DNA of 64,000 nt. Origin: an uncultured Patescibacteria group bacterium. GTDB taxonomy: Bacteria > Patescibacteriota > Patescibacteriia > UBA2591 > CALHIP01. The notes under the pieces were generated by a model. That model was not told where the DNA came from, did no database searches, and saw only the letters and a list, made by a program, of their open reading frames with translations. Positions 3,219-59,537 of this stretch are shown one piece after another; positions within the stretch are counted from its first letter, which is position 1; each line of letters starts with the position of its first letter. Location: contig CALHIP010000008.1 of the NCBI GenBank assembly GCA_938030745.1, forward strand, positions 2,297 through 66,296, given 5' to 3'. The position numbers and the translations under genes were made by a program.

Positions 3219-3222
3219 ATAA

Positions 3223-3294: not shown

Positions 3295-3298
3295 TAAA

Positions 3299-3458
3299 TA
3301 TGAGAATAAAAGAAAACTTAGTCAAATTAGAATGCAGTCAATGTCATCGAATAAATTATTATACGAGAAAAAATAAAAAGAAAATTAAAATACTTTTAGA
3401 ATTAAAAAAATTTTGTAAACATTGCCGAAAACATACCTTGCATAAAGAGATAAAATAA
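3299..3458 (+). CDS. rpmG: 50S ribosomal protein L33
   Basis: Internal ATG of ORF 3237..3458 gives MRIKENLVKLECSQCHRINYYTRKNKKKIKILLELKKFCKHCRKHTLHKEIK (53 aa), with the two CxxC pairs and C-terminal HTLH.E.K typical of L33. The upstream part of the listed ORF is just the tRNA-Thr sequence. Confidence 0.75.
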
Positions 3459-3464
3459 TGAATT

Positions 3465-3535
3465 GGGGCTATAGTTCAATAGTAGAATAACGGTCTCCAA
3501 AACCGTTGATCTCCGTGCAAATCGGAGTAGCCCCG
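3465..3535 (+). tRNA. tRNA-Trp (anticodon CCA)
   Basis: Acceptor GGGGCTA/TAGCCCC, anticodon stem ACGGT/ACCGT, loop CTCCAAA, T-arm CTCCG-TGCAAAT-CGGAG. rpmG followed by tRNA-Trp is the classic arrangement upstream of secE-nusG. Confidence 0.75.
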
Positions 3536-3554
3536 TTCAAACAAAATTTAATTT

Positions 3555-4064: not shown

Positions 4065-4071
4065 TAATTGT

Positions 4072-13586: not shown

Positions 13587-13603
13587 AAAATTAAATTAAT
13601 TTA

Positions 13604-14950
13604 TTATTTAATAATTTCAATAGGTTCACCTAAAGGATGTAAATTTAAAATATCTTCAGAGACAGTAATAATTCTATCCCATTGATAGCCAAGTTCAATA
13701 AAAACATCAGCTGAGACAATTGGTCTTCTTTTACCTAAAGAGATTAAATAAACTGTATCTTTTTCTTTAGATTTTAATAATGTGCCATCTCTAAATTTTA
13801 TTGGTTCAGCCAAAATAAACTCATCTAATTTTTCCTTTTTTACTTTAATAATTTTATCATAAGGAAAATTATTTAAAAGTATCTCTTTAGTATAGATCGG
13901 ATATTTAAATTCATCTTTGACATAATAGATCGCGCCACTTTCTTCATCCTGTAAAAGAGAGCCAACTGGATAGGGTGATAAAATTGGTTTACCTAAAGGA
14001 TAATTTTTTAAATCTTGATCAGAAACTTTAATAATTTCTTCAGGATTAAAACCAATCTCTTTAAAAATTTTTTCTGGAATTGGTCTTAGAGTTTTATTAA
14101 CTAAAAGATATCTTTGATTTTTCTCATCTTCCAATAATGAGTAATTTGGAAAATCCATTGGTTCACCAATTTCATATTTTAAAAGATCTTCTTTTGAGAT
14201 AGTTCTGACATTTTTAAATGAATAAGAAGCTAAAAAAACATTTTTTGAGAAAAAGGGCCGACGTTTACCATTCTGAATTAACCAAATACCAGGCTCATTC
14301 TTTAATTTCACTAAAGTATTATTTTCTATCGGTTCATTTTTTTTACCAAACCATTTTTGCCAGATCTGCCAAAAAAGATAATTGCTTTTAATATAAGGGG
14401 AATAATTATATAAAGCAGCTGTAGCTAAGTTTTGTGGCAAAACGAAAATGCCAGAAATTTTATAAACCTGACCAGGCTGAAAAATAAATTGTTCAGGATG
14501 ATCTAAAAAATAACGTAATCGCCAAGCTGCTCGATCAATTTGTTTAGCAAAACCACGAAATTTTTCAAGACAAGGTCGATTTTCATAACAAGCAAAACTA
14601 GTTGCCCAATCATATTGATTTGTTTTTGGTTTTTTTTGAGTAATTAGTGACTGTTCTTTTTGTAATAAAGTAATTAGAATTTGAGGGTTAATTCGATAAT
14701 TTTGCGAAGCTTTAAAAATAATTTGACTAGCTGATCTTATCTGACCGTCAAGATCATGAGTTTGATAATTAGCTAAACTTCCGCCTTGTTTTTTCAAAAA
14801 ATCTTCGATTTCTTGAAGATTCATTGCCTGATAATTATTTATTTCTTTATCAGAAATCAAATAGTCCGGATTAAATCCGGCTAAAACAGGGTTAATAAAA
14901 ACACATAAACTATAAATAATAAATAGTAGAGTAATAATAAAACGTTGCAT
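13604..14950 (-). CDS. secreted hypothetical protein with two internal repeats
   Basis: Signal peptide ([24 protein letters not shown]); two about 40-aa repeats (GKRRPFFSKNVF... and GKRRPIVSADVF...); no family recognised. Confidence 0.4.
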   Translation of the reverse strand: MQRFIITLLFIIYSLCVFINPVLAGFNPDYLISDKEINNYQAMNLQEIEDFLKKQGGSLANYQTHDLDGQIRSASQIIFKASQNYRINPQILITLLQKEQSLITQKKPKTNQYDWATSFACYENRPCLEKFRGFAKQIDRAAWRLRYFLDHPEQFIFQPGQVYKISGIFVLPQNLATAALYNYSPYIKSNYLFWQIWQKWFGKKNEPIENNTLVKLKNEPGIWLIQNGKRRPFFSKNVFLASYSFKNVRTISKEDLLKYEIGEPMDFPNYSLLEDEKNQRYLLVNKTLRPIPEKIFKEIGFNPEEIIKVSDQDLKNYPLGKPILSPYPVGSLLQDEESGAIYYVKDEFKYPIYTKEILLNNFPYDKIIKVKKEKLDEFILAEPIKFRDGTLLKSKEKDTVYLISLGKRRPIVSADVFIELGYQWDRIITVSEDILNLHPLGEPIEIIK

Positions 14951-17556
14951 TATTTTATAACTATTTTATCTTTTTCTACCTCTACTTTTACTTTTTGACC
15001 TTCTTTTATTTTTCCTTTAACAATTTCTAAAGCTAATTTATCTAAAATTTCTTTTTGAATAACTCGTTTTAATGGACGAGCGCCAAAAACTGGATCAAAA
15101 CCACGTTCAGCAATTAATTTTTTTGCCTCATCAGAAACTTCAATTTTGATATTTTTTTCTTCTAATCTTTTTTTGACTAAATTCAATTGTAACTCAACAA
15201 TTTTTTCAATATGTTGTTTTGTTAAAGCATGGAAAATTATTATCTCGTCTAAACGATTTAAAAACTCTGGTCTAAATCTTTCCTTTAAGGCTTCATAAAT
15301 TTTTTCTTTAACTTTTTCTTCAGTATCCATTTTTTCCCGATCTGAAATAAATCCTAAAGATGCTTTTTGGGCAAAATCCCTAATTATTTCAGAGCCTAAG
15401 TTTGAAGTCATAATAATAATCGTATTTTTGAAATTAACAGTTCTTCCTTTAGCATCAGTTAATCTTCCTTCGTCTAAAATCTGAAGTAAGAGGTTAAAAA
15501 CATCTGGATGAGCTTTTTCAATTTCATCAAAAAGTAGAACTGAATATGGGCGATGTCGAATTTTTTCTGTTAGTTGTCCACCTTCTTCATAGCCAACATA
15601 ACCTGGTGGTGAACCTATAATTTTTGCTACTTCGTGTTTTTCCATATATTCACTCATATCAAGACGGATTAAGGCTCTTTCATCGTCAAACAAAAATTCA
15701 GCTAAAGCTCGTGCCAGTTCTGTTTTGCCAACACCTGATGGTCCTAAAAACATAAAGGAACCTATTGGTCGATTTTCTTCAGCTACTCCAGCCCTTGAGC
15801 GACGAATAGCATTAGCTACTGCTTTAACTGCCTCTTCTTGATTAATTAAGCGTTGATGGATTCTTTCCTCCATTTTTGCTAATTTTTCTGTTTCTTCCTC
15901 TAACATTTTTTCAACTGGAATACCAGTCCACTGAGCAACAATTTTTGCAACATCTTCTTCAGAAACTTCTTCTTTAATAAATCTCTGTTCTTTTTGAATT
16001 TTAGCTAAACTTTTTTCTCGAGTTTTAATTTCTTTTTCTAATTCTGGAATTTTTCCATATTTTATCTCAGCAACTCTTTCTAAATTTGCTTCTCTTTCAG
16101 CAATTTCTAATTCTTGTTTTAGATTATCAATTTCTCTTTTTGCTTTTTTAATAGCTGTAACGATTTCTTTTTCTTTTAACCATCGCAACTCTAAAACTTT
16201 ACCTTTCTCTTTCAATTGTGCCAATTCTTTTTTTATTTTTTTAATTTTTTCTTGACTCTTTTTTTCTTTTTCTAAAGCCAATATTTCAACTTCTAATGTT
16301 TTTATTTTTCTTTTCAGTTTATCTAGTTCTTCTGGTTCTGATTCAATTTCTAATCTTAAAAAAGAACAAGCTTCATCTATTAAATCAACTGCTTTATCAG
16401 GTAAAAATCTATCAGTAATATAACGAGCTGAAAGCTTAGCAGCAGCAATAATTGCTTCATCAGAAATTCTTACGCCATGGTGAATTTCGTATTTTTCTTT
16501 GATTCCACGTAAAATAGCAATTGTCTCCTCAATTGTTGGTTCTGCAACATAAACTGGTTGAAATCTTCTTTCCAAAGCTGGATCTCTTTCAATATATTTT
16601 TGATATTCTTTTAGAGTTGTTGCGCCAATACAACGCAATTCTCCTTTAGCTAAAGCTGGTTTTAACATATTTGAAGCATCAATTGCTCCTTCAGCTGCTC
16701 CAGCACCAACTAAAGTATGTAATTCATCAATAAATAAAATATAATTGCCAGATCTTTTTATTTCTCTTAAAACTGCTTTCAGACGATTTTCAAACTCGCC
16801 TCGATATTTTGTTCCAGCAACTAAACCACCTAAATCTAAACTAATAATCTCTTTGTTTTTTATTGATTCAGGGACATCACCAGAAACAATTCTTTGAGCT
16901 AATCCTTCAACTATTGCTGTTTTACCAACACCAGCTTCACCAATTAAAACTGGATTATTTTTTGTCCTTCTTGATAGAACTTGCATTAATCTTCTAATTT
17001 CATCATCTCGACCAATAATTGGATCAAGTTTTTTCTCCCTAGCCATTTGGGTTAGATTTGTTGTATATTTTTCTAAAGCTTGATATTTTGATTCGGGTTC
17101 TGGTTCAGTTACTCTTTCTGTGCCTCTGACATCAGCTAAAGTTTTTAAAATTGAATCATAATTAGCTCCAAATTCAGCTAATAAATCTTTAATAATAGAA
17201 GGAACAGAGGCGAGGGCCAAAAGTAAGTGTTCAGTAGAAACATATTCATCTTTTAATCGATTTGCTTCTTTAGTTGCTTGAAAAAGTACCTTTTTTAGAA
17301 CTGGCGAGATATAAATTTCAGCTAGACCACCAAGACCAATTACTCGTGGCAAAAGAGCAATTGCACTTTCTGTTCTGGCTCTTAATTTCTCAATTGGTAG
17401 ACCCATTTTTTTTAAAACAGCAACTACTACTCCTTCTTCTTGAGAAAGTAAAGCTAAAAAAAGATGAGGAGTATCAACTTGTTGTTGTTCGTGTTCCATT
17501 GCCAGCGTATGGGCTAGCTGAATCGCTTCTTGGGCTTTAAGAGTAAAATTATCCAT
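14950..17556 (-). CDS. clpB: ATP-dependent chaperone ClpB
   Basis: Two AAA+ modules ([30 protein letters not shown]), long coiled-coil middle domain and a Clp N-domain. The ORF extends to 17607, but that start lies in the promoter; the start is placed at [11 protein letters not shown] (ATG 17556). Confidence 0.9.
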
Positions 17557-17813: not shown

Positions 17814-18827
17814 TTATTTCAAAATCAAATCCAGATTTTCTTTACATTTTCGACATTTTCCATCTTTATCAAACCGCTGGATTTCATAACCAATTCTTTT
17901 GATGTTTAATTCACCACATTTTGGGCAATAAGTATTTTCTCTTTGATCACCTGGCAAATTACCAGCATAAACATATTTTAAACCAACTTTTTTGCCAATC
18001 TCATAAGCTTGATAAATTATTTCTGGCGGAGTAGGTGAGACATTTATCATTTTGTAAGCTGGATAAAAGCGGGAAATATGCCAAGGAGTTTCTTTACCCA
18101 ATTCATTTTTGATAAATTTAGCGATATCTTCAAATTGATTACCTAAATCAGTATAACCAGGAATAACTAAGGTTGTGACTTCAATCCAAATTTTATTTTT
18201 TTTCATCCATTTTAGTGAATCTAAAACTGGCTGAAGTTTTCCACCACAAATTTTTTGATATAAATCGTCGCGGAAAAATTTTAAATCAACATTGGCTGCA
18301 TCTAAATAAGGACCAACCAATTCTAATGTCTTGTTACTCATATAGCCATTGGTTACCCAATTATTTTTCAATCCTTGTTTTTTTGCCAATTTCATTGTTT
18401 CAAAGGCAAACTCTAAAAAAATTGTTGGTTCAGTATAAGTATAAGAAATACTAAACAGATTATTTTTCTTTGCTATTTCAACAATTTCTTCTGGCGACAT
18501 TTCTTCACCTAAAATTTGACCATTGTAATCTCTTGGCATTTGAGAAATTTCATAATTTTGACAATGAAGACATCTAAAATTACAACCAACTGTAGCTATT
18601 GATAAAGAATAACTTCCTGGTAGCCAGTGGAAAAATGGTTTTTTCTCAATTGGATCAATATGAGAGGCCACTACCTTGCCATAAACTAAAGAATAAAGTT
18701 TACCATTTTGATTTTCTCTTACTCCACAAAAACCACGTTTGCCATCAGCAATAAGACAATGATGAGAACAAGCATTACATTTTACAACTTTATTTTTTAA
18801 TTTCTCATATAAAAGTGCCTCTTTCAT
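17814..18827 (-). CDS. AmmeMemoRadiSam system radical SAM enzyme
   Basis: N-terminal CNACSHHCLIADGKRGFCGVRE cysteine motif plus radical SAM GCNFRCLHCQN, and overall length typical of this family (recalled from memory). Confidence 0.65.
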   Translation of the reverse strand: MKEALLYEKLKNKVVKCNACSHHCLIADGKRGFCGVRENQNGKLYSLVYGKVVASHIDPIEKKPFFHWLPGSYSLSIATVGCNFRCLHCQNYEISQMPRDYNGQILGEEMSPEEIVEIAKKNNLFSISYTYTEPTIFLEFAFETMKLAKKQGLKNNWVTNGYMSNKTLELVGPYLDAANVDLKFFRDDLYQKICGGKLQPVLDSLKWMKKNKIWIEVTTLVIPGYTDLGNQFEDIAKFIKNELGKETPWHISRFYPAYKMINVSPTPPEIIYQAYEIGKKVGLKYVYAGNLPGDQRENTYCPKCGELNIKRIGYEIQRFDKDGKCRKCKENLDLILK

Positions 18828-22752: not shown

Positions 22753-23657
22753 TTTCTATTATTATCACTAGCAAAAAAGAAGAAAAAACTTTACCTTTGG
22801 CATTAAAAGCAATTTTAGAAGAAGAAATCCCAGATTCAGAAATAATTGTTGTCAGTCCAGATGAAGAAACAGAAAAAATCATCAAAGAACTCTCTATACC
22901 TCTCTTTTCGGACGGCCGCGCAAAACAGACTATGTCGATTCGATATTTAAAAGATAAAGGAATAGGTAAGCCAGCTGCTTTAAATTTAGCATTCAAAGAG
23001 GCAAGAGGAGAAATCTTAGTTTTAACTGACGGCGATGTTCTTATCGAAAAAGGAGCAATAAAAAAATTATTAAAATATTTTGACGATGAAAATATCGGTG
23101 CAGTAACCGGTCGACCTGTTTCTGTCAACCCATCAAATCAAATGTTTGGTTATTGGTCGCATTTTCTAACCAAAGCTGCTGACAATCTGCGAAGAAAAAG
23201 ATCAAAAAATGGAGAATACCTTGTTTGTTCCGGTTATCTTTACGCGATTCGAAATATTATTAGAGAAATTCCTGAAGATACTTTAGTTGAAGATTCGATT
23301 ATTTCAGAAATGATTTATCAAAAAGGATATAAAATTGCTTATGAACCACAATCAAGAGTTTTTGTCAAATATCCTGACAATTTTTCTGATTGGCTAAAAC
23401 AAAAAATTAGGACAACTGGCGGATATACTCAAAAATTCAAAATTCAAAATTCAAAACTCAAAATTCAAAAAATGCGAAGCTTTTTAGGCGAAGTAAAAGA
23501 TGGCTTAAAATTATTCTTTACTTACCCAAAAAATTTGAAAGAATTTTTCTGGACAATTTTGCTTTATCTTGCTCGCTTATATCTCTGGTTTTTAATTTTT
23601 TGGCAAATTAAAATTTTAAAAAAGACATCTTGGCCAAGAATAGAAAGTACAAAATAA
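22749..23657 (+). CDS. family 2 glycosyltransferase (contains a heptanucleotide repeat tract)
   Basis: MISIIITSKKEE...DGDV.. layout of GT2 with a C-terminal membrane segment; repeat tract at 23436..23470. Confidence 0.55.
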   Translation: MISIIITSKKEEKTLPLALKAILEEEIPDSEIIVVSPDEETEKIIKELSIPLFSDGRAKQTMSIRYLKDKGIGKPAALNLAFKEARGEILVLTDGDVLIEKGAIKKLLKYFDDENIGAVTGRPVSVNPSNQMFGYWSHFLTKAADNLRRKRSKNGEYLVCSGYLYAIRNIIREIPEDTLVEDSIISEMIYQKGYKIAYEPQSRVFVKYPDNFSDWLKQKIRTTGGYTQKFKIQNSKLKIQKMRSFLGEVKDGLKLFFTYPKNLKEFFWTILLYLARLYLWFLIFWQIKILKKTSWPRIESTK

Positions 23658-23681
23658 GCTCCTGGTTTTAACCAGGAGCTT
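23656..23681. terminator. bidirectional intrinsic terminator hairpin between convergent genes
   Basis: Perfect 12-bp palindrome AAGCTCCTGGTT-TT-AACCAGGAGCTT between the GT2 stop (23657) and the pilT stop (23694). Confidence 0.65.
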
Positions 23682-23693
23682 AAACCTTTATCA

Positions 23694-24806
23694 TTAAGAA
23701 AGAAGGTTCCTCAATTCTTTTGGATCATTAGCATACAAAAGAGCTGTTTCTCGTGTAACATACCCCCTTTTCACTAATTCAGCTAAATATTCATCATATC
23801 TAATACCAACTTCTCCATGAACCGCAGAATCTAATTGATGAATCTTCCATTCTCGGATCATGTTAGCATAACCAGGAGTAACAAATACAATCTCAAAAAC
23901 AGCGACCCTGCCCTTACCATCCGCTCGTGGAACTAATCTTTGGCAAAAAATACCAATCACACTTACAGAGAACATGGTGCGAATTTGCGGTCTAACATTC
24001 TCGGGGAAAATATCTACATATCGTCCAACAGTTTGAGCTGCATTTCGGGTGTGAAGAGTAGAAAGAACAAGATGTCCTGTCTCAGCTGCGCGCAAAGCTG
24101 TCTCTGCTGTCTCTAAATCTCGAATCTCAGCAACCAAAAAATTGTTAGGAACCTCTCGCATCCCCGCTCGAATTCGATCTGCGAAATTAAAGAAATCCTT
24201 TTCAAATTCACATTGACTAATTGTTCCTGAATATTTTCTATTATCAAATTCAAATTCTATAGGATCTTCAAGGGTGATCATATGAATTGCCCGTGTCTGA
24301 AGAATGTAATCAGTGAAAGTTGCTAAAGTCGTCGTTTTACCACTTCCGGTAGGGCCAGTCACTAAAATAAGACCATTCTGACGAGATAACAGTTCTTTAA
24401 TCTTGGGAATATACTCTGGAAGAACAAAGATCTCTTCAAAAGAGAAAATTTTTTGAGGTAAGAGTCTGATGGCAATGGCAAGTGACCCCCTTTGGAGATA
24501 AACTGAAATCCGCAATCTAGTAATTGGTTCAGTAGAAAGTGTCAAACTCAGTTCATTATAACCACGATTTTTTATTTTTTCAATAAAACTTTTATAGCTT
24601 TCGTCAGTTTCTTGATAAAAAGGCCGGGATAAACTAACCAATTCTCTGACATACTTAATGATATCATCATTATTTAGAATTGGTTCGCCCTCTATTTTTT
24701 GAAAAACACCATCAATCTTTAATTGAGGCGGTTTATCCTTAATGCATAATAAATCAGAAGCCCGCTTCTTCACTCCTATTTCTAAAAGCTCAATTATTTT
24801 TCTCAT
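23694..24806 (-). CDS. pilT: type IV pilus retraction ATPase PilT
   Basis: Walker A GPTGSGKTTTLA, PilT/PilU-family layout, 370 aa; strong Shine-Dalgarno (AGGAGGTGGAA) before the ATG. Confidence 0.85.
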   Translation of the reverse strand: MRKIIELLEIGVKKRASDLLCIKDKPPQLKIDGVFQKIEGEPILNNDDIIKYVRELVSLSRPFYQETDESYKSFIEKIKNRGYNELSLTLSTEPITRLRISVYLQRGSLAIAIRLLPQKIFSFEEIFVLPEYIPKIKELLSRQNGLILVTGPTGSGKTTTLATFTDYILQTRAIHMITLEDPIEFEFDNRKYSGTISQCEFEKDFFNFADRIRAGMREVPNNFLVAEIRDLETAETALRAAETGHLVLSTLHTRNAAQTVGRYVDIFPENVRPQIRTMFSVSVIGIFCQRLVPRADGKGRVAVFEIVFVTPGYANMIREWKIHQLDSAVHGEVGIRYDEYLAELVKRGYVTRETALLYANDPKELRNLLS

Positions 24807-24938: not shown

Positions 24939-26477
24939 ATGGTCAGAGTACGTTTTGCTCCAAGTCCAACAGGCTTTTTACACATTGGTAGCTTGCGAAC
25001 CGCTCTTTATAATTTTTTATTTGCTCGAAAAAATAAAGGTAAATTTATCTTAAGAATTGAAGATACTGACATCAAAAGACAGGTTCCTGGCGCTTTAGAA
25101 AATCTTATAATAGTTTTAAAAAAAATGGGGCTTGATTATGATGAAGGTCCTTTTTTAGTTAAACTAAAAAACAAAAAATTAGTAATTAAACAAAAGGGGA
25201 AATATGGACCTTATATCCAATCACAAAGATTGAAAATTTATCAAAAATTTGCTCAAAAATTAGTTAAAAATGGTTATGCTTATTATTGTTTTTGCACTCA
25301 AGCTGAATTGGAGAAAATGCGACAAGAACAAATAGCAAAAAAAATACCTCCGATGTATGATGAAAGATGCCGGAAATTAAGCGAAAAAGAAATCAAAAGA
25401 AAATTAGAAGAAAAGATTCCTTATGTTATCAGATTAAAAGTTCCAGAAGAGGGGAGGATTAAATTTTATGACTTAATTCGCGGTGAAATAGAATTTGATT
25501 TTAAAAACATTGATGATCAAGTTTTATTAAAATCAGATGGTTACCCAACGTATCATCTAGCTGTTGTTGTTGATGATTATTTGATGAAAATTACCCATAT
25601 TATCAGAGGAGAGGAGTGGTTACCAAGTGTGCCGAAACATTTATTAATTTATCAAGCATTAGGTTGGCAACCACCAAAATTTGCTCATCTTCCTTTAATT
25701 TTAAATCCTGATCGTTCTAAACTCTCAAAAAGAAAATCTGATGTTGCAGTTGAAAGTTATTTAAATCTAGGCTATTTACCGGAAACAATTTTAAATTTCA
25801 TTGCTTTGCTTGGTTGGAATCCTGATACTAATCAAGAAATTTTTTCTTTAGATGAATTGATAAAAGAATTTTCTTTAGAAAAAATTCAGAAATCAGGTGC
25901 AATTTTTAATCGAGAAAAATTAGATTGGATGAACGGTTTATATATTAGAAACAAATCTGTTAATGAGCTAACAAAATTATCTTTACCATTTTTAATTAAT
26001 GCTAAATTAATAGAAAAAATTAATCGAAAATTTAAAATTATCCAAACAAAAGAAATTGTTGATTTTAACTGGTTAAAGAAAATTGTAAGTTTAGAACAAG
26101 AAAGAATGAAAAAATTAGCTGATCTTGAACAATTGGCTGATTTCTTTTTTAAGGAAAAGTTGGATTATTCTGCTGAAATCTTAATCTGGAAAAAAATGAA
26201 TTTTCCCCAAGTTAAGAATAATCTTAAATTAATCAAAAAAAATTTATTAAAAATTTCTAAAAATAAATTTAAAACAAAAGAGATTTATAAGACTTTAGAA
26301 AAATTAGCTAAAGAAAAGGGGACGGGTGAAATTTTCTGGCCATTCCGAGTAGCTCTTTCTGGCAAAACTGCTTCACCACCACCAGCCGAAATTGCTGAGA
26401 TTTTAGGTAAAGAAAAAACAATTAAGAGAATAGATGAGGCGATTAAATTATTAAATTATGAAGATTCAAAAAAATAA
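24939..26477 (+). CDS. gltX: glutamyl-tRNA synthetase
   Basis: VRVRFAPSPTGFLHIGSLRTALYN (HIGH motif), KLSKR (KMSKS-type motif), 512 aa. Confidence 0.9.
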   Translation: MVRVRFAPSPTGFLHIGSLRTALYNFLFARKNKGKFILRIEDTDIKRQVPGALENLIIVLKKMGLDYDEGPFLVKLKNKKLVIKQKGKYGPYIQSQRLKIYQKFAQKLVKNGYAYYCFCTQAELEKMRQEQIAKKIPPMYDERCRKLSEKEIKRKLEEKIPYVIRLKVPEEGRIKFYDLIRGEIEFDFKNIDDQVLLKSDGYPTYHLAVVVDDYLMKITHIIRGEEWLPSVPKHLLIYQALGWQPPKFAHLPLILNPDRSKLSKRKSDVAVESYLNLGYLPETILNFIALLGWNPDTNQEIFSLDELIKEFSLEKIQKSGAIFNREKLDWMNGLYIRNKSVNELTKLSLPFLINAKLIEKINRKFKIIQTKEIVDFNWLKKIVSLEQERMKKLADLEQLADFFFKEKLDYSAEILIWKKMNFPQVKNNLKLIKKNLLKISKNKFKTKEIYKTLEKLAKEKGTGEIFWPFRVALSGKTASPPPAEIAEILGKEKTIKRIDEAIKLLNYEDSKK

Positions 26478-27687
26478 AATAAAATTTTTAAAAATTTTAT
26501 TTGTTTTTTTTCTTTTATTTTTTGTTTTAATCTTTCAAATTAGAGCTCAGGATACTGATGAGCTTAAAGAAAAAATAAGACAATACCAAGAATATATTAA
26601 AGAATTAGAAAAACAGCAAAAATTTTATGAAGAAAATATAAAAATAAAGAGAAAAGAAGCTATAACTTTAAAAAACCAAATTGCGATTTTAGAAAATCAG
26701 ATTGCTAAAACAAAAACAGAAATTAAGAAAAAAGAAGCACAGATTAATAAAACAAATTTAGAGATAGAACAAATTCAATCTCAAATTAAAGATAAAGATT
26801 TAAAACTTTCCGACCTTAAAGAAAAAATTGCTGAACTTATAAGGAAAATATACCAATATGAGAATAAAAGTTATCTTGAAATTATTCTCTTAAACGAAAA
26901 CCTTTCTGAATATTTTAATCTTTTAAAGACAACACAAGATTTACAAAATTCATTACAGAAAACTTATGATGCTATTTTATTAATTAAAGAGAATTTAGAA
27001 GATAAAGAAAAACAACTTCAAAACAAAAAATTAGAATTAGAAAATTTAAAAAAAGAATTAACTCTTCAGAAGAAAAATTTAGAAAGTGAAGAAAGAGCAA
27101 AAAAGAATCTTTTAGAAGAAACTCGTGGAGCAGAATGGAAGTTTCAAAATCTTTTAGCTGAAGCAAGATTAGAAATGAGACAAGTAGAATTAGAAATTGC
27201 TCGACTAGAAAAAGAAATTAGGAAGAGGTTAGAGAAAGAAAAAGAAAAAAGATGGCAGGAATTAGAAGAATTGGGGATAATTGTTTTTTCTTGGCCAGTG
27301 CCAAATGAGGGGATTACTGCTACTTTTCATGATCCAGATTATCCTTTTAAAAAATGGCTTGGCGAACATTCTGGTATCGATATTAGAGCTAACCAAGGAA
27401 CACCTGTAAAGGCTTCTGCTTCTGGTTATGTTGCTCGAGCTAAATATGGCGGAATGGGGTATTCCTATATTATGATTATTCATCAACAGGGATTTTCAAC
27501 TGTTTACGGACATCTTTCAAAAATTAATGTTGAGGAAGGTGTTTTTGTAAAAAGAGGTGAAATTATTGGTTTAACAGGAGGACTTCCTGGTACACCTGGA
27601 GCTGGCCGATTTTCAACCGGTCCTCATCTTCATTTTGAAATTCGAAAAGATGGTATTCCAGTAAATCCATTAAATTATTTACCATAA
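26458..27687 (+). CDS. M23 family metallopeptidase with N-terminal coiled coil (EnvC-like)
   Basis: Signal/TM segment, about 250 aa of coiled coil, then M23 motifs HSGIDIRANQGTPVKA and GPHLHFEI. Confidence 0.75.
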   Translation: MKIQKNKIKFLKILFVFFLLFFVLIFQIRAQDTDELKEKIRQYQEYIKELEKQQKFYEENIKIKRKEAITLKNQIAILENQIAKTKTEIKKKEAQINKTNLEIEQIQSQIKDKDLKLSDLKEKIAELIRKIYQYENKSYLEIILLNENLSEYFNLLKTTQDLQNSLQKTYDAILLIKENLEDKEKQLQNKKLELENLKKELTLQKKNLESEERAKKNLLEETRGAEWKFQNLLAEARLEMRQVELEIARLEKEIRKRLEKEKEKRWQELEELGIIVFSWPVPNEGITATFHDPDYPFKKWLGEHSGIDIRANQGTPVKASASGYVARAKYGGMGYSYIMIIHQQGFSTVYGHLSKINVEEGVFVKRGEIIGLTGGLPGTPGAGRFSTGPHLHFEIRKDGIPVNPLNYLP

Positions 27688-27742
27688 ATTTTACTAAACC
27701 TTCGATTAATGTGTTAATACATTAATACAGAGTAAATTTGAT

Positions 27743-28693
27743 TTATATTTTTCTACCACTATGGAATTTGCGATGGATATCACGAAGACGAGGATTAGTA
27801 ACATGAGTATAAACTTGAGTAGTAGTGATATTCTTGTGACCAAGAAATTCTTGAACAACTCTTATATCAACACCTTGAGTCAAAAGATCAGTCGCGAAAG
27901 AATGTCGGAGAACGTGAGGAGTAGTGATTATTGGAATGCCAGCTAAAAGAGCATATTTTTTAACAATATTTTCGATTGAACGAATAGAGAGTCTTCTTGA
28001 AGTATTTTTTGGACCGCGATAATTTATAAAAAGAGCCTTTTCTTCATCTTTTCTAGTCATTAAATAATTTCTTAAAGCCCTAATTGCTCTCTCAGAAAAA
28101 TAAACTGTTCTTGTTCTGCCGCCTTTTCCAGTAATAACAATCTCTAAATCTTTTGTTTCTGGTTTAATTTTTATTTGATCTCGATTAAGGTTAACTAATT
28201 CTGCTACTCTTAATCCAGTAGAAAAAAGTGTTTCTAAAATTGCTTTATCACGCAAACCAATAATTGTTTTTTCATTTGGTGTTTCTAAAAGTTTTTTTAT
28301 TTGATCTAAACTGAGAAATTTAATAGTTTTTTCCTTTTCTTCTTTAGCTAATTTTATTTTTTCTGCTGGCAAAGAAATAATTCCTCGGTCAGTAAAATAA
28401 TTTAAAAGAGCTCTTAAAGCAATTAAATAATAATTTTGTGTACTTTTTTTCAGAGGAGTTTTTTTTAATTTATTAAAAGAACGAGAGAGCCAAACTCGAT
28501 ATTTCCAAATATGCTCTTCAGTTAATTCAGCTGGTTTTATCTGAGAGATTTTATTTTCTTTAAGCCAATCAAAAAATTTTTTTAAAAATCTATTATAATT
28601 TTCTTGAGTTTTATTAGAAAGACCCTTTTCTACAGCTAAATACTCAAGAAAATCATTTAAATGATTAATAATTGGCTTATTATTTTTCCGCAT
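27743..28693 (-). CDS. tyrosine site-specific recombinase (XerC/XerD-like)
   Basis: C-terminal catalytic region HVLRHSFATDLLTQGVDIRVVQEFLGHKNITTTQVYTHV (R..H-R-H...Y); N-terminal SAM-like domain. Confidence 0.75.
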   Translation of the reverse strand: MRKNNKPIINHLNDFLEYLAVEKGLSNKTQENYNRFLKKFFDWLKENKISQIKPAELTEEHIWKYRVWLSRSFNKLKKTPLKKSTQNYYLIALRALLNYFTDRGIISLPAEKIKLAKEEKEKTIKFLSLDQIKKLLETPNEKTIIGLRDKAILETLFSTGLRVAELVNLNRDQIKIKPETKDLEIVITGKGGRTRTVYFSERAIRALRNYLMTRKDEEKALFINYRGPKNTSRRLSIRSIENIVKKYALLAGIPIITTPHVLRHSFATDLLTQGVDIRVVQEFLGHKNITTTQVYTHVTNPRLRDIHRKFHSGRKI

Positions 28694-28841
28694 AGTATTA
28701 CCTAATTTCGCTTAACCTACCTTATGCGAAGTTTAATCCTTTTTATTATAAAGAGTTAAAAATAATCTGTAAATCCTACCCCCTGTGGATAAATCGGATA
28801 AAACTCGTATCGGATAAAACTCGTTTTGTTATTCTTCATCT

Positions 28842-29657
28842 TTATTTATAAAAAATTCGGCCACTAAATCTTAAATCAATATATTCAAGTTTTTTTCGAT
28901 CAGTAATTTTCTCTTTTAAAATTAATAGGAGATTCCTCACCTGCTCTTTAATATCTCCTTTTGGATCAAAATAAATTTTCCAATTTTCTGAAGTAAATGC
29001 TTGATAAATTAAAGCGCCATTTACTTCATTTATTTCAATCTTTAAAATTTTAAAATCAAGATTAGAAGTCTTTTTTAAAAAATCAAAGACAGATAAAATT
29101 GAAATTTCGCTTAATTCTTTCTCTACTTTATTTTCAACTATTGGTAAATTTGCTATATCTACTTCTTCTTGAGAGATCTTTTTAATAATCTCGCCATTTT
29201 TATTTAAAAGAAAATAGTCACCTAAAAATAAAAAAACTACTTCTGGCTTCCAGGCAGAAATTTTTATTTTTATTTCTCGATTAAAATTTCTTTTAATTTC
29301 AAAATTTTCTATTTTTTGATCTCTTAATAAAAGATTTTTTATTTCCTTTTTAGGGAAAAAAAATATATTATCTAAATTTAAAAAATAAAATTTTTTCGAT
29401 AAAATTTTATTAATTTCATTTTTTAATTGTTGTTCATCGATTTTAACTAATGGATAATCTTTAATTTCAAAAGAAATAAATTTGATCTTAAAAATTGGAG
29501 AAAAAAAAATCAAATAAAAAGAGCTAGCCAATAAAATTATCAAAAAAATTAGAGAAAAGATAAAAAATTTTGAAATTTTTTTCTTCTTTTCGTGTTGACG
29601 AAAAGCTATCATTCTTTTAGGAATTTGTTTTTTTTCAAAAAGAGAAATTATCCTCAT
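28842..29657 (-). CDS. ftsQ: FtsQ/DivIB-like cell division protein
   Basis: Basic N-terminus, single TM helix, POTRA-like extracytoplasmic region; positioned directly after ddl as in dcw clusters. Start set at the internal Met (MRIISLF) to limit overlap with ddl. Confidence 0.45.
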   Translation of the reverse strand: MRIISLFEKKQIPKRMIAFRQHEKKKKISKFFIFSLIFLIILLASSFYLIFFSPIFKIKFISFEIKDYPLVKIDEQQLKNEINKILSKKFYFLNLDNIFFFPKKEIKNLLLRDQKIENFEIKRNFNREIKIKISAWKPEVVFLFLGDYFLLNKNGEIIKKISQEEVDIANLPIVENKVEKELSEISILSVFDFLKKTSNLDFKILKIEINEVNGALIYQAFTSENWKIYFDPKGDIKEQVRNLLLILKEKITDRKKLEYIDLRFSGRIFYK

Positions 29658-29667
29658 TCTTTTTGAT

Positions 29668-30738
29668 TTACAAAGGTCCTTTTTTATTTTTATGTGCTTC
29701 AAGTCCTAATTGAATAATTTTATCTAAAAATTCTTCTGGTGACATCCCGACTTCGGCTGCTTGATGAAAAACCATAGTTGACGGTGTTACGCCAGGTAAA
29801 GTATTTGGCTCTAAAACAATTATTTCTCCATTTCTAACAAACATATCAATTCTTGGATAACCTTTAAGATTTAAAATTTGACAAACTTTAATAGCGGTTT
29901 CTTTAGCTTTTTTAGTTGTTTCTTCATCTAATCGAGCTGGAGTAATCATTTCTGCGCCACCAGGAAGAAATTTATCAAGCAAAGTTAAATATCCTAAATT
30001 CTGTTGCCAAGGTGTTTCAGTTAAAGGCAAAGCTTCTAATTCTTCATTACCTAAAACCGAACAAGTAATTTCTATCGCATTCTCAATATATTCATCAACT
30101 AAAATAATCCTATCCCAAATAAAAGCCTTTTTCATTGCCTCATCAAGATCTTTTTCCTCTTTAACAACAGTAATTCCTGTGCTACAACCCTCACGTGATG
30201 GTTTAACTAAACAAGGAAAGCCAATTTCCTTCTTTATCTTCTCTTTAATAATTTTAGCTGAAGAAGGGTCCATCCAATCTTTATCATAAACAGCTAGATA
30301 TTTCGGTACCTTAATTCCATGTAAAGTTAAGATTTTTCTTAAAGCATATTTATCCATTCCAAGTGCTGATGCTAATACACCTGAGCCATTGTAAGGAATA
30401 TTTAAAATCTCTAATAATCCTTGAAAACACCCATCTTCTAAATATTTACCATGACCGATAATAAAGGCAAAATCAATTAGTTCAGGTAATTTTTCATAAG
30501 GAATTTTTTCAGCTTGACCTTCAAGTAGTGCTTCAAGATCTGAAGTTGTATTTTGGATAATCAAAAAATCATTGATTCGCCACAATTTTAATTTTGAATC
30601 AACAAAAATTGGGATTTTCTCATATTTTTCTGCTGGTATTTTATAATAAACATTTCTTCCACCTTCAAGCGAAACTTCTTTTTCACTCGAAACTCCACCA
30701 AAAATAATACCAATCCTTAATTTATTCTTCTTGTCCAT
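29668..30738 (-). CDS. ddl: D-alanine--D-alanine ligase family paralog with variant second-substrate subsite (predicted D-Ala-D-X/depsipeptide ligase)
   Basis: ATP-grasp Ddl fold (IGIIFGGVSSEKEVSLEGG, GYPRIDMF, LEPNTLPG). By alignment to E. coli DdlB the Ser150 position reads Cys (EGCSTG) and the Lys215-Tyr216 position reads Lys-Phe (LDKFLPGG). Confidence 0.75.
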   Translation of the reverse strand: MDKKNKLRIGIIFGGVSSEKEVSLEGGRNVYYKIPAEKYEKIPIFVDSKLKLWRINDFLIIQNTTSDLEALLEGQAEKIPYEKLPELIDFAFIIGHGKYLEDGCFQGLLEILNIPYNGSGVLASALGMDKYALRKILTLHGIKVPKYLAVYDKDWMDPSSAKIIKEKIKKEIGFPCLVKPSREGCSTGITVVKEEKDLDEAMKKAFIWDRIILVDEYIENAIEITCSVLGNEELEALPLTETPWQQNLGYLTLLDKFLPGGAEMITPARLDEETTKKAKETAIKVCQILNLKGYPRIDMFVRNGEIIVLEPNTLPGVTPSTMVFHQAAEVGMSPEEFLDKIIQLGLEAHKNKKGPL

Positions 30739-30897
30739 AGTTTTTAATTATAATAAATTTTTATAAAAATGTTAAGTTGATTCTTAAAATAAAAAAAATT
30801 TTTTAAGATAATAAAACTTTTTCTCATTTCTGATGAGTTCTTTTTTAGATCTCAGTCCATTTGAAATCGTCTTGACTACTCATTAGTTCTTCTTCTC

Positions 30898-31140
30898 TTA
30901 TTTAACCCAGTCAGCTCCTAATTTTCTCATTTTCTGGCAGATGTCTTTTATCTCCCTTTCTAGTGAGAGTAACTCATTTCTCTGATTCTCACAAAGCTGA
31001 CCGCCGAGGGACTCTTTTTTTGCTTCCATCTCAGCCAATTTGTTTAAAATTTCGATTCGTCTTTTATCAATTTCTGTCAGTGTTTCTATTCTTTCTCTTT
31101 CGGGCTGAGATAGAAATTGTTCTTGGCCCCTCTCTTTCAT
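30898..31140 (-). CDS. hypothetical small charged protein, GC-richer than neighbours
   Basis: 80 aa, predicted helical and charged; about 39% GC by hand count versus about 30% nearby; sits between the two ddl paralogs beside a repeat element. Confidence 0.3.
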   Translation of the reverse strand: MKERGQEQFLSQPERERIETLTEIDKRRIEILNKLAEMEAKKESLGGQLCENQRNELLSLEREIKDICQKMRKLGADWVK

Positions 31141-31239
31141 AAATATTGTGTTAATACATTAATACGAAAATTGATTTATTTTTCATTTTTTATTATATCT
31201 TATTTAAATAATTTAGTCAAGAGACCCAAAATAATAATT

Positions 31240-32307
31240 TTAGAGTGGCCCTTTTTTATTCTGATGAGCTTGGAAAGCTAATTCAATAATTTTTGTTAAA
31301 AAATCTGTTAAGCTTAAACCAGCTAAAGCAGCCTGGTGATAAGTCCAAGATGATGGTCCCATACCAGTTGAAGCAGCGGAATTTGGATCAGTTATTAATA
31401 CCTTACCATCCTCTTCAATAAAACCATCAATTCTGGCATAACCTCGGCAACCTAAAGCTAAATATGTCCTTCTCGCCTGCTCCTGAATCTCTTTAATTAT
31501 TTTTTCATCAATTTTTATTGGCGTGATTTTTTTTGAAGCTCCGGGTAGATATTTGTGGTCATAGGTAAAGATTTCTGAATCATAAATTGTTTCTGTTGGT
31601 AAAAAAGCGACTGGATCCTCGTTACCAAAAACAACACAGGAAAATTCACGACCTTTAATTCTTTCTTCAATTAAAACTTCATTATCATATTCTAAAGCAT
31701 AATTTATTCCTTTTTCTAAATCTTTTTCATCTTTAACTAACATTACACCAATAGTTGAACCTTCACGAGTTGGTTTAGTAACAATTGGATAAGAAAATTT
31801 TTCTTTAATTGTTTTTTTTATCGCCTCTTTATTTTTCTCCCAATCACTTCTTTTAATCACTAAATATTCTGGTAAATTTATCCTACCATCTGCTTTCATC
31901 AACTCTCTTTGCATTTTTTTATCTAAACCTAAAGCAGCTGAAAGAACGCCCGAACCAGTATAAGGAATATTCAATATTTCTAAAACTCCTTGAAGACAAC
32001 CATCATCACCATATTTGCCATGAGTAACTAAAAAAGCTAAATCAATTAAATCTTTTAATTCTTCAATAAAAATTCTTTTTGCTCCTTTTATTTGTAAATT
32101 TTCTTCAATCTCTTTGCAAGTGTTGCGAATAATTAAACCTTCTGGAATTTGCCAGAATCTTAATTGAGAATCCCAGAAAATGGCAATTGGAATAAATTTT
32201 GTCCGATCTAAATGTTGATAAACATGCCGACCACCAGCTAAAGAAACTTCTTTTTCTGATGATTTTCCACCAAAAATTACACCAATTCTAAATTTCTTAT
32301 TTTCCAT
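31240..32307 (-). CDS. ddl: D-alanine--D-alanine ligase (canonical active-site residues)
   Basis: IGVIFGGKSSEKEVSLAGG, KPTREGSTIG (Ser retained), FTYDHKYLPG (Lys-Tyr retained), GYARIDGF, DPNSAAS. Confidence 0.85.
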   Translation of the reverse strand: MENKKFRIGVIFGGKSSEKEVSLAGGRHVYQHLDRTKFIPIAIFWDSQLRFWQIPEGLIIRNTCKEIEENLQIKGAKRIFIEELKDLIDLAFLVTHGKYGDDGCLQGVLEILNIPYTGSGVLSAALGLDKKMQRELMKADGRINLPEYLVIKRSDWEKNKEAIKKTIKEKFSYPIVTKPTREGSTIGVMLVKDEKDLEKGINYALEYDNEVLIEERIKGREFSCVVFGNEDPVAFLPTETIYDSEIFTYDHKYLPGASKKITPIKIDEKIIKEIQEQARRTYLALGCRGYARIDGFIEEDGKVLITDPNSAASTGMGPSSWTYHQAALAGLSLTDFLTKIIELAFQAHQNKKGPL

Positions 32308-32372
32308 ATATTTTTAAAAAAATTCTCCTATACTATTTTACGCGGCCGCTTTAAATAGTTTAGTTAGGATTT

Positions 32373-33596
32373 TTATTTATAGATTCTTGGTAAAAGTGGA
32401 TTAATTCGGGTTACTATTTCATAATTGATTGTTCCAATTTTTTCAGCCAGTTCTTCAGCGGTAATTTCTTCATTACCTTGTTTGCCGATTAAGACTACTT
32501 CATCTCCAATTTTAACATTAGGAATTTTTGTTACTTCAACCATTATTAAATTCATACAAACCCGACCACGAATTTGAGCTCGCCTTCCCCGAATTAAGAC
32601 CTGACCTTTATTTGATAATTTTCGATCATAACCATCCCAATAACCTACTGGCAAAACTGCAATTTTTGTTTTTCTTCTACAGCGATAAGTACAACCATAA
32701 CCAATAGGTGTTCCTGCTGATAATTCCTTAACTTGAATCACTTTTGTCTTCCAACTTAAGGCGGGTTTTAATTTTAATCTTATACCTTGTTTTTTTTCTA
32801 ATCCCTTGCTTGTTAGAGCTCCCTTCCAACCAAAAAGATCAGAAGCTAATTTTCGAGTTTCAGCTGATGGCCATAAACCATAAAGCCCGATTCCAATTCG
32901 AACTAAATTAAAATAAGTGGCAGGATTTCCAATAGTTGAAGCGGTACAACCAGCATGAATTAAGTCAAAAAAAGAGTCAAGACCAATTTTTTTGTTAATT
33001 TCTTCCACCACCCTCTTTAATCTTTCAGTCTGTAAAAGCGTATATTTTTGATTATAAGCCTCTGCATTGGCAAAATGGGTAAAGATACCTTTGAAGGTCA
33101 AACCAGGCAATTTAAGGCATTTTAAAACAAAATTTAAGCTATCTTTCGGTAAAACTCCAATCCTTGAGGTGCCAGTATCAATTTTTATATGAATTTTTGC
33201 CTCTTTACCTATTTTTTGGCTTAATTTCGACAAAATTTTTGCCTGTGGATAAGTATAAACAGCAAATTCTATTTCCTGACGAAGGGCTTGAATTTGACTC
33301 TTAATATCTTTAAGATCCCAATAAGTTAAAACAAGGATAGGTTTTTTAATACTTATTTTTCTTAAGATTAAAGCTTCATCTAAATAAGCTACTCCAAAAT
33401 AATCAATATATTCTTTAATAATTTTTGCTACACCAACTAATCCGTGACCATAAGCATTTGACTTAACGACTGCCATTAATTTTATTTTCGGCCCAACAAT
33501 TTTTTTGAATTCTTTCAAATTATTAATTAATGCTGATTTAGAAATTTCTACCCAAGTCAACATAATAATCAAAATTGATTGATAATTTCTGGCCAT
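32373..33596 (-). CDS. alr: alanine racemase
   Basis: VVKSNAYGHG PLP-lysine motif; about 400 aa; an alternative start MLTWVEI at 33563 would remove the overlap with serS. Confidence 0.8.
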   Translation of the reverse strand: MARNYQSILIIMLTWVEISKSALINNLKEFKKIVGPKIKLMAVVKSNAYGHGLVGVAKIIKEYIDYFGVAYLDEALILRKISIKKPILVLTYWDLKDIKSQIQALRQEIEFAVYTYPQAKILSKLSQKIGKEAKIHIKIDTGTSRIGVLPKDSLNFVLKCLKLPGLTFKGIFTHFANAEAYNQKYTLLQTERLKRVVEEINKKIGLDSFFDLIHAGCTASTIGNPATYFNLVRIGIGLYGLWPSAETRKLASDLFGWKGALTSKGLEKKQGIRLKLKPALSWKTKVIQVKELSAGTPIGYGCTYRCRRKTKIAVLPVGYWDGYDRKLSNKGQVLIRGRRAQIRGRVCMNLIMVEVTKIPNVKIGDEVVLIGKQGNEEITAEELAEKIGTINYEIVTRINPLLPRIYK

Positions 33597-59393: not shown

Positions 59394-59537
59394 AAAGAAT
59401 CAAATGAAGTAAATGATAAAGATTGTATTATTATATTCTTTTTTTAAAAAATAAACAAGTCTTTTTTAAATCTCTGTCAATGTGTTAACACGCTGGATTA
59501 GAAAATATAGATTGTTAAAGAAATATAAAGACTAACT

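Follow-up and report, generated by a model that had tools for sequence, protein, structure and literature searches.

Which sequence at this xer locus acts as the chromosome-dimer resolution site, and what is the repeat that is found on either side of the locus? The DNA in question is a 64-kb stretch (the window) of a 67-kb contig; it is AT-rich, with a G+C content of about 0.29, and its genes place it in the Patescibacteria, also known as the Candidate Phyla Radiation (CPR). A repeat of about 45 nt occurs here twice, in the same orientation, on both sides of some 3.4 kb of DNA that holds the gene of a XerC/D-like tyrosine recombinase (xer). A first-pass annotation had offered, as one of several readings, copy 1 as the dif site of the recombinase, copy 2 as a pseudo-dif and the DNA between them as an integrated, Xer-exploiting element. 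Our analysis points to another arrangement: a canonical-type dif candidate within the xer leader, at the replication terminus, a separate motif family of putative protein-binding sites to which the repeat belongs, and no mobile element. To this combination as a whole we give an even chance.

The features of the locus, in window coordinates, are as follows.

26458..27687, plus strand: gene of an M23 peptidase, convergent with xer; the window's gene-strand change falls here.
27702..27729, minus strand: repeat copy 1 (c1), in the gap between the M23 gene and xer; in the sense of xer it reads TGTATTAATGT-ATTAAC-ACATTAATCGA.
27743..28693, minus strand: xer, a XerC/D-like tyrosine recombinase of 316 aa with the Pfam domain Phage_integrase and a SAM-like N-terminal domain.
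28705..28732, minus strand: candidate dif site in the xer leader, ACTTCGCATAA-GGTAGG-TTAAGCGAAAT, with 11-bp arms around a 6-bp centre (11-6-11).
28745..28773, minus strand: promoter-like site of xer, TTTACA-17-TATAAT, with 11 of 12 matches.
28842..29702, minus strand: ftsQ/divIB-like gene (FtsQ_DivIB_C domain), kept upstream of xer in relatives.
29668..30738, minus strand: ddl2, a paralogue of D-Ala-D-Ala ligase, with a promoter-like site of its own at 30747-30775.
30898..31140, minus strand: orf80, gene of a small coiled-coil-like protein, part of a cassette of about 0.5 kb (30739-31239).
31139..31166, minus strand: repeat copy 2 (c2), CGTATTAATGT-ATTAAC-ACAATATTTAT, in the 5' leader of orf80.
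31192..31220, minus strand: strong promoter-like site of orf80, TTGACT-17-TATAAT, with 11 of 12 matches.
31240..32307, minus strand: ddl1, a D-Ala-D-Ala ligase by domain match.
59473..59500, plus strand: third member of the repeat family (s3), TCTGTCAATGT-GTTAAC-ACGCTGGATTA, inverted with respect to c1 and c2.

The dif candidate ends 12 nt before the xer ATG, within the non-coding 148-nt spacer between ftsQ and xer, and its arms are symmetric at 9 of 11 positions around the 6-bp centre. It lies downstream of the promoter-like site of xer and would be inside the transcribed leader if that promoter is used. Its left arm is unique in the window, the whole site is a single hit in the 64 kb, as it is in each related locus that has it, and no match to a classical dif rises above chance elsewhere in the window. 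Relatives were fetched by means of the Xer protein (80 genome loci and 80 metagenome loci, together with contigs of the closest relatives; individual loci are denoted below by L and a number), and the window Xer is 66-80% identical to those from Patescibacteria. In a position-weight scan, 85 loci had the site on the strand of xer and no more than 300 nt ahead of its ATG; with either strand and up to 900 nt allowed, 110 of 168 loci have it, while stray hits of the dif matrix elsewhere number about 3 in about 2 Mb. Dif-like sites of related CPR loci read ACTTCGCATAATGTATATTAATACACGT and ACTTCGCATAATGTAGATTAAGCGAAGT. The former has an unbroken run of 16 bases in common with E. coli dif and one of 18 bases in common with Erwinia dif, the central TGTATA among them (published sequences: E. 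coli GGTGCGCATAATGTATATTATGTTAAAT, Erwinia GGTTCGCATAATGTATATTATGTTAAAT, Sodalis AGTACGCATAATGTAGATTATGTTAAAT; PMC2731167). By our own count the window candidate agrees with Sodalis dif at 21 of 28 positions, and the sequence CGCATAA-TGTAxx-TTA is common to canonical dif and CPR sites. The outer part of the XerD-side arm differs, being TTAAGCGAAAT here and TTATGTTAAAT in canonical dif, and the two are only partly similar. An identity of the leader element as an RNA hairpin only was considered and given up, as comparison with dif sequences showed a dif-type site.

Among 76 unique sites, arm positions 3 and 26 covary (G-C in 45, T-A in 23), and both position 8 and position 21 hold A in 71. Two coupled states together with a fixed non-pair would fit a palindrome read by a protein better than a free RNA helix. 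We infer that Xer acts at this site and that 28705-28732 is most likely where chromosome dimers are resolved: each of the two nearly symmetric arms would be bound by a Xer monomer, with strand exchange taking place across the 6-bp centre, in the manner of XerS/difSL. Copy 1 had been proposed for this role; the canonical 11-6-11 site, kept in about 110 of the 168 loci, lies on the other side of xer.

The recombinase itself scores 238 bits on both the XerD and the XerC model, each time under the equivalog cut-off, and of the proteins with a solved structure E. coli XerD is nearest to it in sequence. On the XerS model it reaches 125 bits against a cut-off of 267 and, judged by these scores, it is not XerS. 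The domain scan bore out the earlier gene calls, namely the tyrosine recombinase, FtsQ, two paralogous D-Ala-D-Ala ligases and an 80-aa open reading frame (ORF); annotation with the domain library covered about 30 of the 70 window ORFs of at least 80 aa. No ftsK gene was identified in the window, where an 845-aa ATPase (4072-6609) matches models of the VirD4/TraD type. Upstream of xer, about 10-20 nt from its -35 box, the minus strand carries a DnaA-box-like sequence at 28784-28792 (TTATCCACA / TGTGGATAA), beside which TTATCCGAT occurs twice at about 28795-28815. DnaA-box-like sequences also precede the xer -35 box in L082 (about 9901-9909) and the clpB promoter of relatives (L082, about 15527-15535; L086, about 9823-9831). 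In the latter two loci a CIRCE-like inverted repeat, TTAGCAGTC-N9-GAGTGCTAA, lies over the clpB promoter (L082 15540-15570, L086 9838-9865).

Full-text literature searches listed no paper that combines Patescibacteria or Parcubacteria with Xer or dif. The closest parallel in layout is the XerS/difSL system of streptococci and lactococci, where difSL lies immediately upstream of xerS as a single module at the terminus and skew shift (PMC1914069; PMC5357621), and where difSL was speculated to follow the xerS promoter and precede the ORF, or else to belong to the promoter (Le Bourgeois et al. 2007, PMC1914069). As there, the CPR site directly precedes the recombinase gene at a switch of skew and strand, and the linkage of site and gene is kept across many genomes while the neighbours change. 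Unlike XerS, which has 356 aa, the window recombinase is XerC/D-like and has 316 aa; unlike the atypical difSL of 31 bp with its 11-bp centre, the CPR site is a canonical one of 28 bp and 11-6-11 design, similar to proteobacterial dif. It resembles the canonical XerCD/dif system of Proteobacteria and Firmicutes (Carnoy and Roten 2009, PMC2731167) in being a non-coding 28-bp palindromic site near the terminus. It departs from that system in standing in the xer leader, whereas canonical dif is far from xer, in having nearly symmetric and covarying arms, and in its G+C content, which is above the genome average.

The site and its gene are not always together. In L088 a 2.6-kb insertion (1690-4366) with an opposite-strand DUF7897 gene splits the xer promoter and dif-like site (1758-1785) from the xer ATG; no second dif-like site was found at its other edge. 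A copy of the repeat motif lies at 1337-1364 of the same locus, upstream of the dif-like site and the xer promoter.

The position of the module was examined in a pooled set of 116 non-redundant loci with a Xer at least 56% identical, using naive ORFs. Genes upstream of xer run with it in 484 cases and against it in 46, whereas those downstream run against it in 445 cases and with it in 84. After gene strand was fitted, GC skew retained a side term of -0.049 (95% confidence interval -0.069 to -0.033), and a simple left/right comparison gave a plus-to-minus change of skew in 38 of 69 loci; no such side term was seen in 32 loci with more distant Xer. The point where orientation and skew switch is the 3' end of xer, roughly 1 kb away from the dif candidate, and gene orientation in the window follows the same pattern (28:3 and 6:19). 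Because genes converge and the skew flips independently of strand in the pooled loci, the placement of the dif-xer module at the replication terminus is well supported by sequence comparison. The suggestion of a recombinase-adjacent dif at the terminus, of the XerS/difSL type, was right in kind; the site concerned is 28705-28732 and not the repeat.

What, then, is the repeat? Its core is an exact 19-mer, TGTGTTAATACATTAATAC, at 27710-27728 and 31147-31165 of the plus strand in the same orientation, and with up to 3 mismatches allowed these are its only matches in the window (0.03 expected by chance), so the reported pair of direct copies around about 3.4 kb is confirmed, with a start of 27710 and not 27711 for the first. 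The distance from c1 to c2 is 3,437 bp. Towards xer the similarity goes on with indels (AAATATAAATCAAATTT and AAAAATAAATCAATTTT, 15 of 17), where the local alignment scores 13 and the null has a mean of 6.3 (P about 0.005, random window 32-mers), a null made mostly of coding DNA, so that the tail of the repeat is only moderately secure; with this proviso its description as about 45 nt at about 85% identity is fair. The 28-bp core of c1 lies 13 nt past the xer stop, in the middle of the 55 nt that separate the convergent M23 and xer genes; an overlap with the stop codon (27743-27745), as had been said of the repeat as such, exists only for the AT-rich tail outside this core. In c2 the core stands between the promoter-like site and the ATG of orf80, and it ends with the A and T of that ATG. 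The pair had been thought to be the only copies. A position-weight scan added s3, 32 kb from c1 in the gap that runs from the stop codon of a 312-aa ORF to the first codon of a P-type ATPase gene (56808-59393). It scored 33.4, while 20 shuffled windows reached 15.2 at most, scores that are partly circular as the matrix was built from 9 sites including all three of the window. Both arms of s3 align by eye with the xer-adjacent sites of L082 and L089, and no further site in the window exceeded the shuffle maximum.

Copy 1 forms a perfect 8-6-8 palindrome, ATTAATGT-GTTAAT-ACATTAAT, and taken as 11-bp arms it is symmetric at 9 of 11 positions. The dif-like layout reported for it, two arms of about 11 bp, does exist in c1; it is not kept in relatives, where the distal arm is symmetric at only 4-6 of 11 positions (by eye). 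Moreover, c1 is not among the best matches to the E. coli, B. subtilis or difSL sites, c2 and s3 have no significant similarity to the arms of 28705-28732, the inner arm bases are AATGT/ACATT in the repeat and ATAA/TTAA in the dif candidate, and there are three family members in 64 kb where a dif would be present once per chromosome. A terminator or another RNA element was rejected as the identity of the repeat: no terminator-like site was found in 27400-29000 or 30600-31400, fold z-scores at the repeat sites are 0.02, -0.90 and 0.16, and there is no Rfam match in 26500-32500. The terminator-like reading offered earlier falls with these results, and the palindrome is one that relatives do not keep. 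The window does have a G+C-rich hairpin resembling a bidirectional terminator, AAGCTCCTGGTTAAAACCAGGAGCTT, at 23657-23694 between the convergent genes of a T2SSE-like ATPase and a GT2 protein; the gap at xer, by contrast, has no hairpin. Avoidance of the HpaI site GTTAAC was not seen in the window (8 observed, 10 expected).

If the repeat is not dif, is the DNA between c1 and c2 a mobile element? From ddl1, beyond c2, to xer all genes are on the minus strand, in the order ddl1, orf80, ddl2, ftsQ and xer. Four relatives allow a comparison of gene order.

L082 (Xer 78% identical): serS-alr-ddl1-orf80-ddl2-ftsQ-(89 aa)-xer; repeat copies before orf80 and after xer.
L174 (Xer cut by the contig end, 86% over its N-terminal part): the order of L082 as far as the contig goes; copy before orf80.
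L089 (Xer 77%): serS-alr-ddl1-ddl2-ftsQ-xer, with no orf80 and the ddl genes 28 nt apart; copy after xer only.
L169 (Xer 78%): serS-alr-ftsQ-(89 aa)-xer, with no ddl between alr and xer; copy after xer only.

Since gene order is conserved in these relatives and copy 2 is missing exactly where orf80 is missing (L089, L169), the 3.4 kb from copy 1 to copy 2 belongs to the ordinary core of the chromosome and is no mobile element; a recent insertion of the interval was dismissed on the same synteny. The only unit that varies is the 0.5-kb orf80 cassette between ddl1 and ddl2, which carries c2; this was also the outcome of the comparison of orthologous loci that had been proposed for the 27.7-31.2 kb segment. 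Collinearity with L082 goes on beyond xer (GT2, LigT, radical SAM, ClpB, Memo, PriA), where the differences are insertions. The "variant ddl" of the first-pass annotation is this second ligase gene, ddl2. Because its protein is 82-83% identical to orthologues and only about 46% identical to that of ddl1, ddl2 is by sequence comparison an old, conserved tandem paralogue. Orf80 looks like a real gene from its conservation: its protein of 80 aa, without a Pfam match, is 45% identical to its L082 orthologue over a gap-free alignment and 45-54% identical to the L082 and L174 proteins at the same position. As a clue to function its homologues were of no use, being a few proteins of 78-107 aa from the window's clade with no domain.

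A model with copy 1 as dif and copy 2 as pseudo-dif, bounding a Xer-exploiting element of xer, ftsQ, ddl2 and orf80, would account for direct repeats with a common arm and centre and differing distal arms, and for a near-perfect 11-6-11 palindrome in copy 1 beside xer at a terminus-like strand switch. Direct repeats of this kind, with a degenerate second arm and near xer, are also known from integrative mobile elements exploiting Xer (CTX-phi, VGJ-phi, TLC-phi, the gonococcal island). Unlike in these, however, the repeats here are not dif-like, the DNA between them is core and the orf80 unit is not flanked by two copies. The supposed element itself contains 28705-28732, a far better candidate for dif, relatives without copy 2 (L089, L169) have the core genes in the common order, and presence or absence affects the orf80 cassette only and never the interval as a unit. 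We regard this model as extremely unlikely.

Two further integrations by Xer at copy 1 were considered, that of the M23-gltX-T2SSE block and that of a 236-aa ORF in L086, and both were discarded, as the far edge has no second site or remnant of the B arm. It was also tempting to see c1 and s3 as the ends of an inversion of about 32 kb, because the arms look swapped (A-B at xer of L082, A-A' and A''-B in the window); such an inversion was rejected, both flanks of xer being collinear with L082 apart from insertions. An exchange between c1 and c2 would give the junction sequences ...AATCAATTTTCGTATTAATGTATTAACACATTAATCGAAGG... for the deletion and ...TTTACTCTGTATTAATGTATTAACACAATATTTATGAAAG... 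for the circle. L001 (Logan contig ERR9287632_46206), an independent assembly of the same sequence, ends at about window position 30877, inside the 3' end of orf80; this break may reflect population variation at the orf80 cassette. In L082 the radical-SAM gene (13021-15459, 812 aa) carries an intein with a LAGLIDADG domain, while its window orthologue (17814-18827, 337 aa) is intein-free.

With dif and mobile element set aside, the repeat has to be judged from its own distribution. Family members, aligned as arm (11), centre (6) and arm (11) in the sense of xer, are listed below for the relatives.

L082, after xer: TGTATTAATGG-GTTAAC-ACGCTGATTAG.
L089: TGTATCATCGT-GTTAAC-ACGCTAATTAG.
L088: TGTATCAATGT-GTTAAC-ACAGTTTTTAT.
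L169: TGTGTTAATGT-ATTAAT-ACGGTATTATA.
L082, before orf80: TCTATCATTGT-GTTAAC-ACAATATATTA.
L174, before orf80: TGTTTTAGTGT-ATTAAT-ACAATATATGA.

The conserved part is a 20-bp core, TGTATyAATGT-(G/A)TTAAC-AC, made up of the proximal arm, the centre and AC, which in relatives is quasi-palindromic over 12-20 bp (TGTGTTAACACA); the distal arm is variable and comes in interchangeable types A', B and C. The xer-adjacent copy lies 12-48 nt after the xer stop in five genomes (window, L082, L088, L089, L169), and L086, with a copy at +212, is the sixth. Between the window and L082 this copy is 17/19 identical, whereas the surrounding intergenic DNA gives only short matches at chance level. The orf80-linked copy is kept in three genomes, namely the window, L082 (18/19 identical) and, diverged, L174; the -10 box of orf80 and the TATAATAAAAAATGAA that follows are identical in L082. 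At both positions, after xer and before the orf80 ATG, the motif is kept while the flanking intergenic DNA is not alignable. A 20-nt matrix matched only loci with a Xer at least 77% identical and found no motif in about 150 more distant loci (about 2 Mb in total). Close relatives have about 8 copies in about 95 kb, 7 of them at xer or orf80; two copies each were counted in L082 and L088 and three in the 64-kb window.

Because conservation of the motif exceeds that of the DNA around it at two orthologous positions, and because the motif is neither a dif arm nor a terminator, we read it as a clade-specific protein-binding motif separate from dif, so that of the options first considered a binding site for a regulator is still the best for the repeat itself, as a putative one. 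We infer that one sequence-specific DNA-binding protein binds the copies and has a regulatory effect: at orf80, where it would sit between promoter and ATG, it could be a roadblock or repressor, and at the 3' end of xer it might mark or insulate the gap at the terminus where two genes converge with no terminator between them. A quasi-palindromic core of 12-20 bp and leader or promoter positions (orf80, the L086 ORF, the ATPase) are shared with operators of dimeric transcription factors; unlike in these, the best-conserved copy has no promoter, no cognate regulator is evident and the placement varies.

The motif was also considered as a phage attP and rejected: viral contigs gave seven exact matches, which a rough guess of the collection size puts close to chance, and two of them are in unrelated AT-rich repeat arrays. 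In the IMG/VR contigs L179 (about 380-520) and L182 (about 1690-1780), dense arrays like TTAATGTATTAA(C)AC match the core; these are probably unrelated iteron-like repeats.

Intergenic palindromes without host function, like repetitive extragenic palindromic (REP) sequences or miniature inverted-repeat transposable elements, could have a similar appearance, and the xer copy would then be an old insertion. The copies are imperfect palindromes of about 30-45 nt, all intergenic and one between convergent gene ends; there are three in 64 kb, versions of about 30 nt with the design A-core-B occur at two non-orthologous places (the xer-GT2 gap of L082 and L089, and 59.5 kb in the window), L082 and L088 have tandem half-units, and s3 is not conserved in orthologous contexts. 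The xer copy is nevertheless kept at its orthologous position in 5-6 genomes whose Xer proteins are 77-80% identical, and the orf80 copy in three; away from xer and orf80 there is about one copy per 80-95 kb of DNA read, and neither a gene like the REP-associated tyrosine transposases nor another transposase gene is among the roughly 30 annotated window ORFs. This origin seems unlikely to us.

Another kind of site-specific recombination, by which cassettes such as that of orf80 are captured or exchanged at the copies as core sites, would explain the 11-6-11 design with a conserved arm and centre and interchangeable distal arms (A', B, C). It would also explain why copies within a genome share the hexamer and, in the window, an identical 19-mer, while orthologous copies differ. 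Insertions near xer do carry a copy at one edge (the orf80 cassette, the 236-aa ORF in L086), and in L088 the copy at 1337 is upstream of dif and xer promoter with the 2.6-kb insertion between dif and xer. Yet no insertion is flanked by two copies, tblastn found no second recombinase gene in the 64-kb window, collinearity with L082 on both sides of xer speaks against an inversion between the inverted c1 and s3, and the far edges of the M23-gltX-T2SSE and L086 insertions lack a B-arm remnant. Recombination of this kind appears distinctly unlikely.

More distant relatives show a different sort of satellite around the module. There, copies of TGTCGCACAAT follow xer and occur elsewhere within about 2.5 kb; TGTCGCACAAT had been a candidate homologue of the repeat and proved to be the left arm of the relatives' own dif. 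Loci with a GTCGCA-type dif arm have 41 extra arm copies (in 27 of 47 loci), those with a TTCGCA-type arm only 9 (in 6 of 47). The window's clade has the TTCGCA type, no enrichment of half-sites and, instead, the repeat motif. Satellite sites around the dif-xer module are recurrent, and in the GTCGCA subclade they are plausibly Xer half-sites.

Half-site copies (aaaTGTCGCACAATAtta) cluster round xer in both orientations in L121, L116, L043, L157 and L164. In many of the distant relatives an ORF of about 165 aa follows xer at the positions listed here; of the TGTCGCACAAT copies that flank it, one doubles as a -35 region, TTGTCGCAyAAT-17-TATAAT.

L116: 6992-7673.
L121: 6966-7615.
L043: 10994-11570.
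L124: 8023-8670.
L002: 1132-1872.
L091: 7491-8082.

From its motif ..DGCFDLQFR.. alone we take this ORF to be a putative homing endonuclease of the LAGLIDADG type; the one copy that was scanned matched no NCBIfam model. At 6968-8477 of L090, xer is followed by a 176-aa ORF and then by a second Xer-like ORF (332 aa), with a dif half-site copy just beyond the latter.

Could the repeat copies be secondary Xer sites, bound without productive recombination, that autoregulate orf80-ddl2-ftsQ-xer or organise the terminus? Karaboja et al. in 2021 are said to have described XerD-bound, non-recombining sites at the terminus of Bacillus subtilis, and the clusters of TGTCGCACAAT dif-arm copies within 2.5 kb of xer and dif in distant CPR relatives are similar to these. 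One repeat copy is strictly tied to the 3' end of xer through several changes of context, the design is 11-6-11, the position after xer is held by copies of their own dif left arm in more distant relatives, where extra arms accumulate in GTCGCA-type loci, and TGTCGCACA is found in 29 of 153 loci where 1.3 are expected. Unlike at the B. subtilis terminus, however, the extra motif of the window's clade is not a dif arm: the repeat has no significant similarity to one, its inner arm bases are others, and dif half-sites are not enriched in the window (5 matches with at most 1 mismatch, 3.7 expected). We consider this role of the copies unlikely.

A function as polar fork barriers of the Ter kind or as matS-like organisers of the terminus would suit c1, which sits exactly at the gene-strand change and near dif, and all three copies are at or within 32 kb of the strand-change point. 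Ter sites can occur in promoter regions, as TerB does in that of E. coli tus. The opposite orientations of c2 (minus) and s3 (plus) on the same side of the presumed terminus are unlike a fork trap, though, no candidate terminus protein is known and the motif is confined to a narrow clade, so that we think such barriers or organisers very unlikely.

Returning to the combination of a terminus dif-xer module, separate putative binding motifs and no mobile element, several observations weigh against one or another part of it. The dif candidate is the joint-best match to E. coli dif in the window, at 19/28, which is not above chance window-wide; its G+C content, 0.39 by our count, exceeds the value of about 0.29 for the window, unlike in proteobacterial dif; and it can be folded as a hairpin of the leader RNA, in which positions 3 and 26 covary. 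Four close relatives, L086, L170, L171 and L172 (Xer 74-78% identical), have no dif-like site in the 6-15 kb read, and their xer adjoins divergently transcribed genes; from these loci, gene and site can be separated. As to the terminus, the skew side term of the window is -0.021 with a confidence interval that includes zero, so that the window alone cannot show it, and local GC skew largely follows gene strand in a contig of 67 kb. As to the separateness of the repeat, the distal arm of c1 agrees with the dif left arm at 10 of 14 positions (P about 0.03, uncorrected), and a design of 11-6-11 with one conserved and one variable arm looks like the core site of a recombinase. The central hexamer is the same within a genome, ATTAAC twice in the window and GTTAAC twice in L082, which hints at exchange between copies. 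As to its role, no candidate regulator gene is evident for a binding protein, s3 is absent upstream of three ATPase orthologues of 70-72% identity, promoter placement is inconsistent (c2 in the 5' leader; s3 upstream of a -35 box; the L086 copy abutting one in the promoter region of the 236-aa ORF), and c1, the best-conserved copy, has no promoter at all.

A wider picture, speculative and unlikely as it stands, would give a large CPR clade a self-contained cassette exactly at the replication terminus. In it, a dif of canonical type would stand in the transcribed leader of a single XerC/D-like gene, xer would be autoregulated by recombinase occupying that dif, and lineage-specific satellite sites (dif half-sites in one subclade, the TGTATyAATGT-GTTAAC motif in that of the window) would recruit Xer or a partner to organise the terminus, through SMC unloading, fork arrest or insulation of transcription, and to control small genes linked to the terminus, like orf80.

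For annotation there is a practical correction: the locus holds no integrated element, and the repeat is not to be annotated as dif. Patescibacteria have tiny genomes and no cultured model, and what is said of how they maintain their chromosomes comes from gene content only. The conserved dif-xer module would give dimer resolution in this group a definite site and a definite protein, and would provide a terminus marker for closing or checking CPR genomes from metagenomes. Furthermore, the layout with the site next to its recombinase, as in XerS and XerH, would also have arisen with parts of the canonical type, and the extra motifs, the repeat included, are candidate protein-binding sites associated with the terminus.

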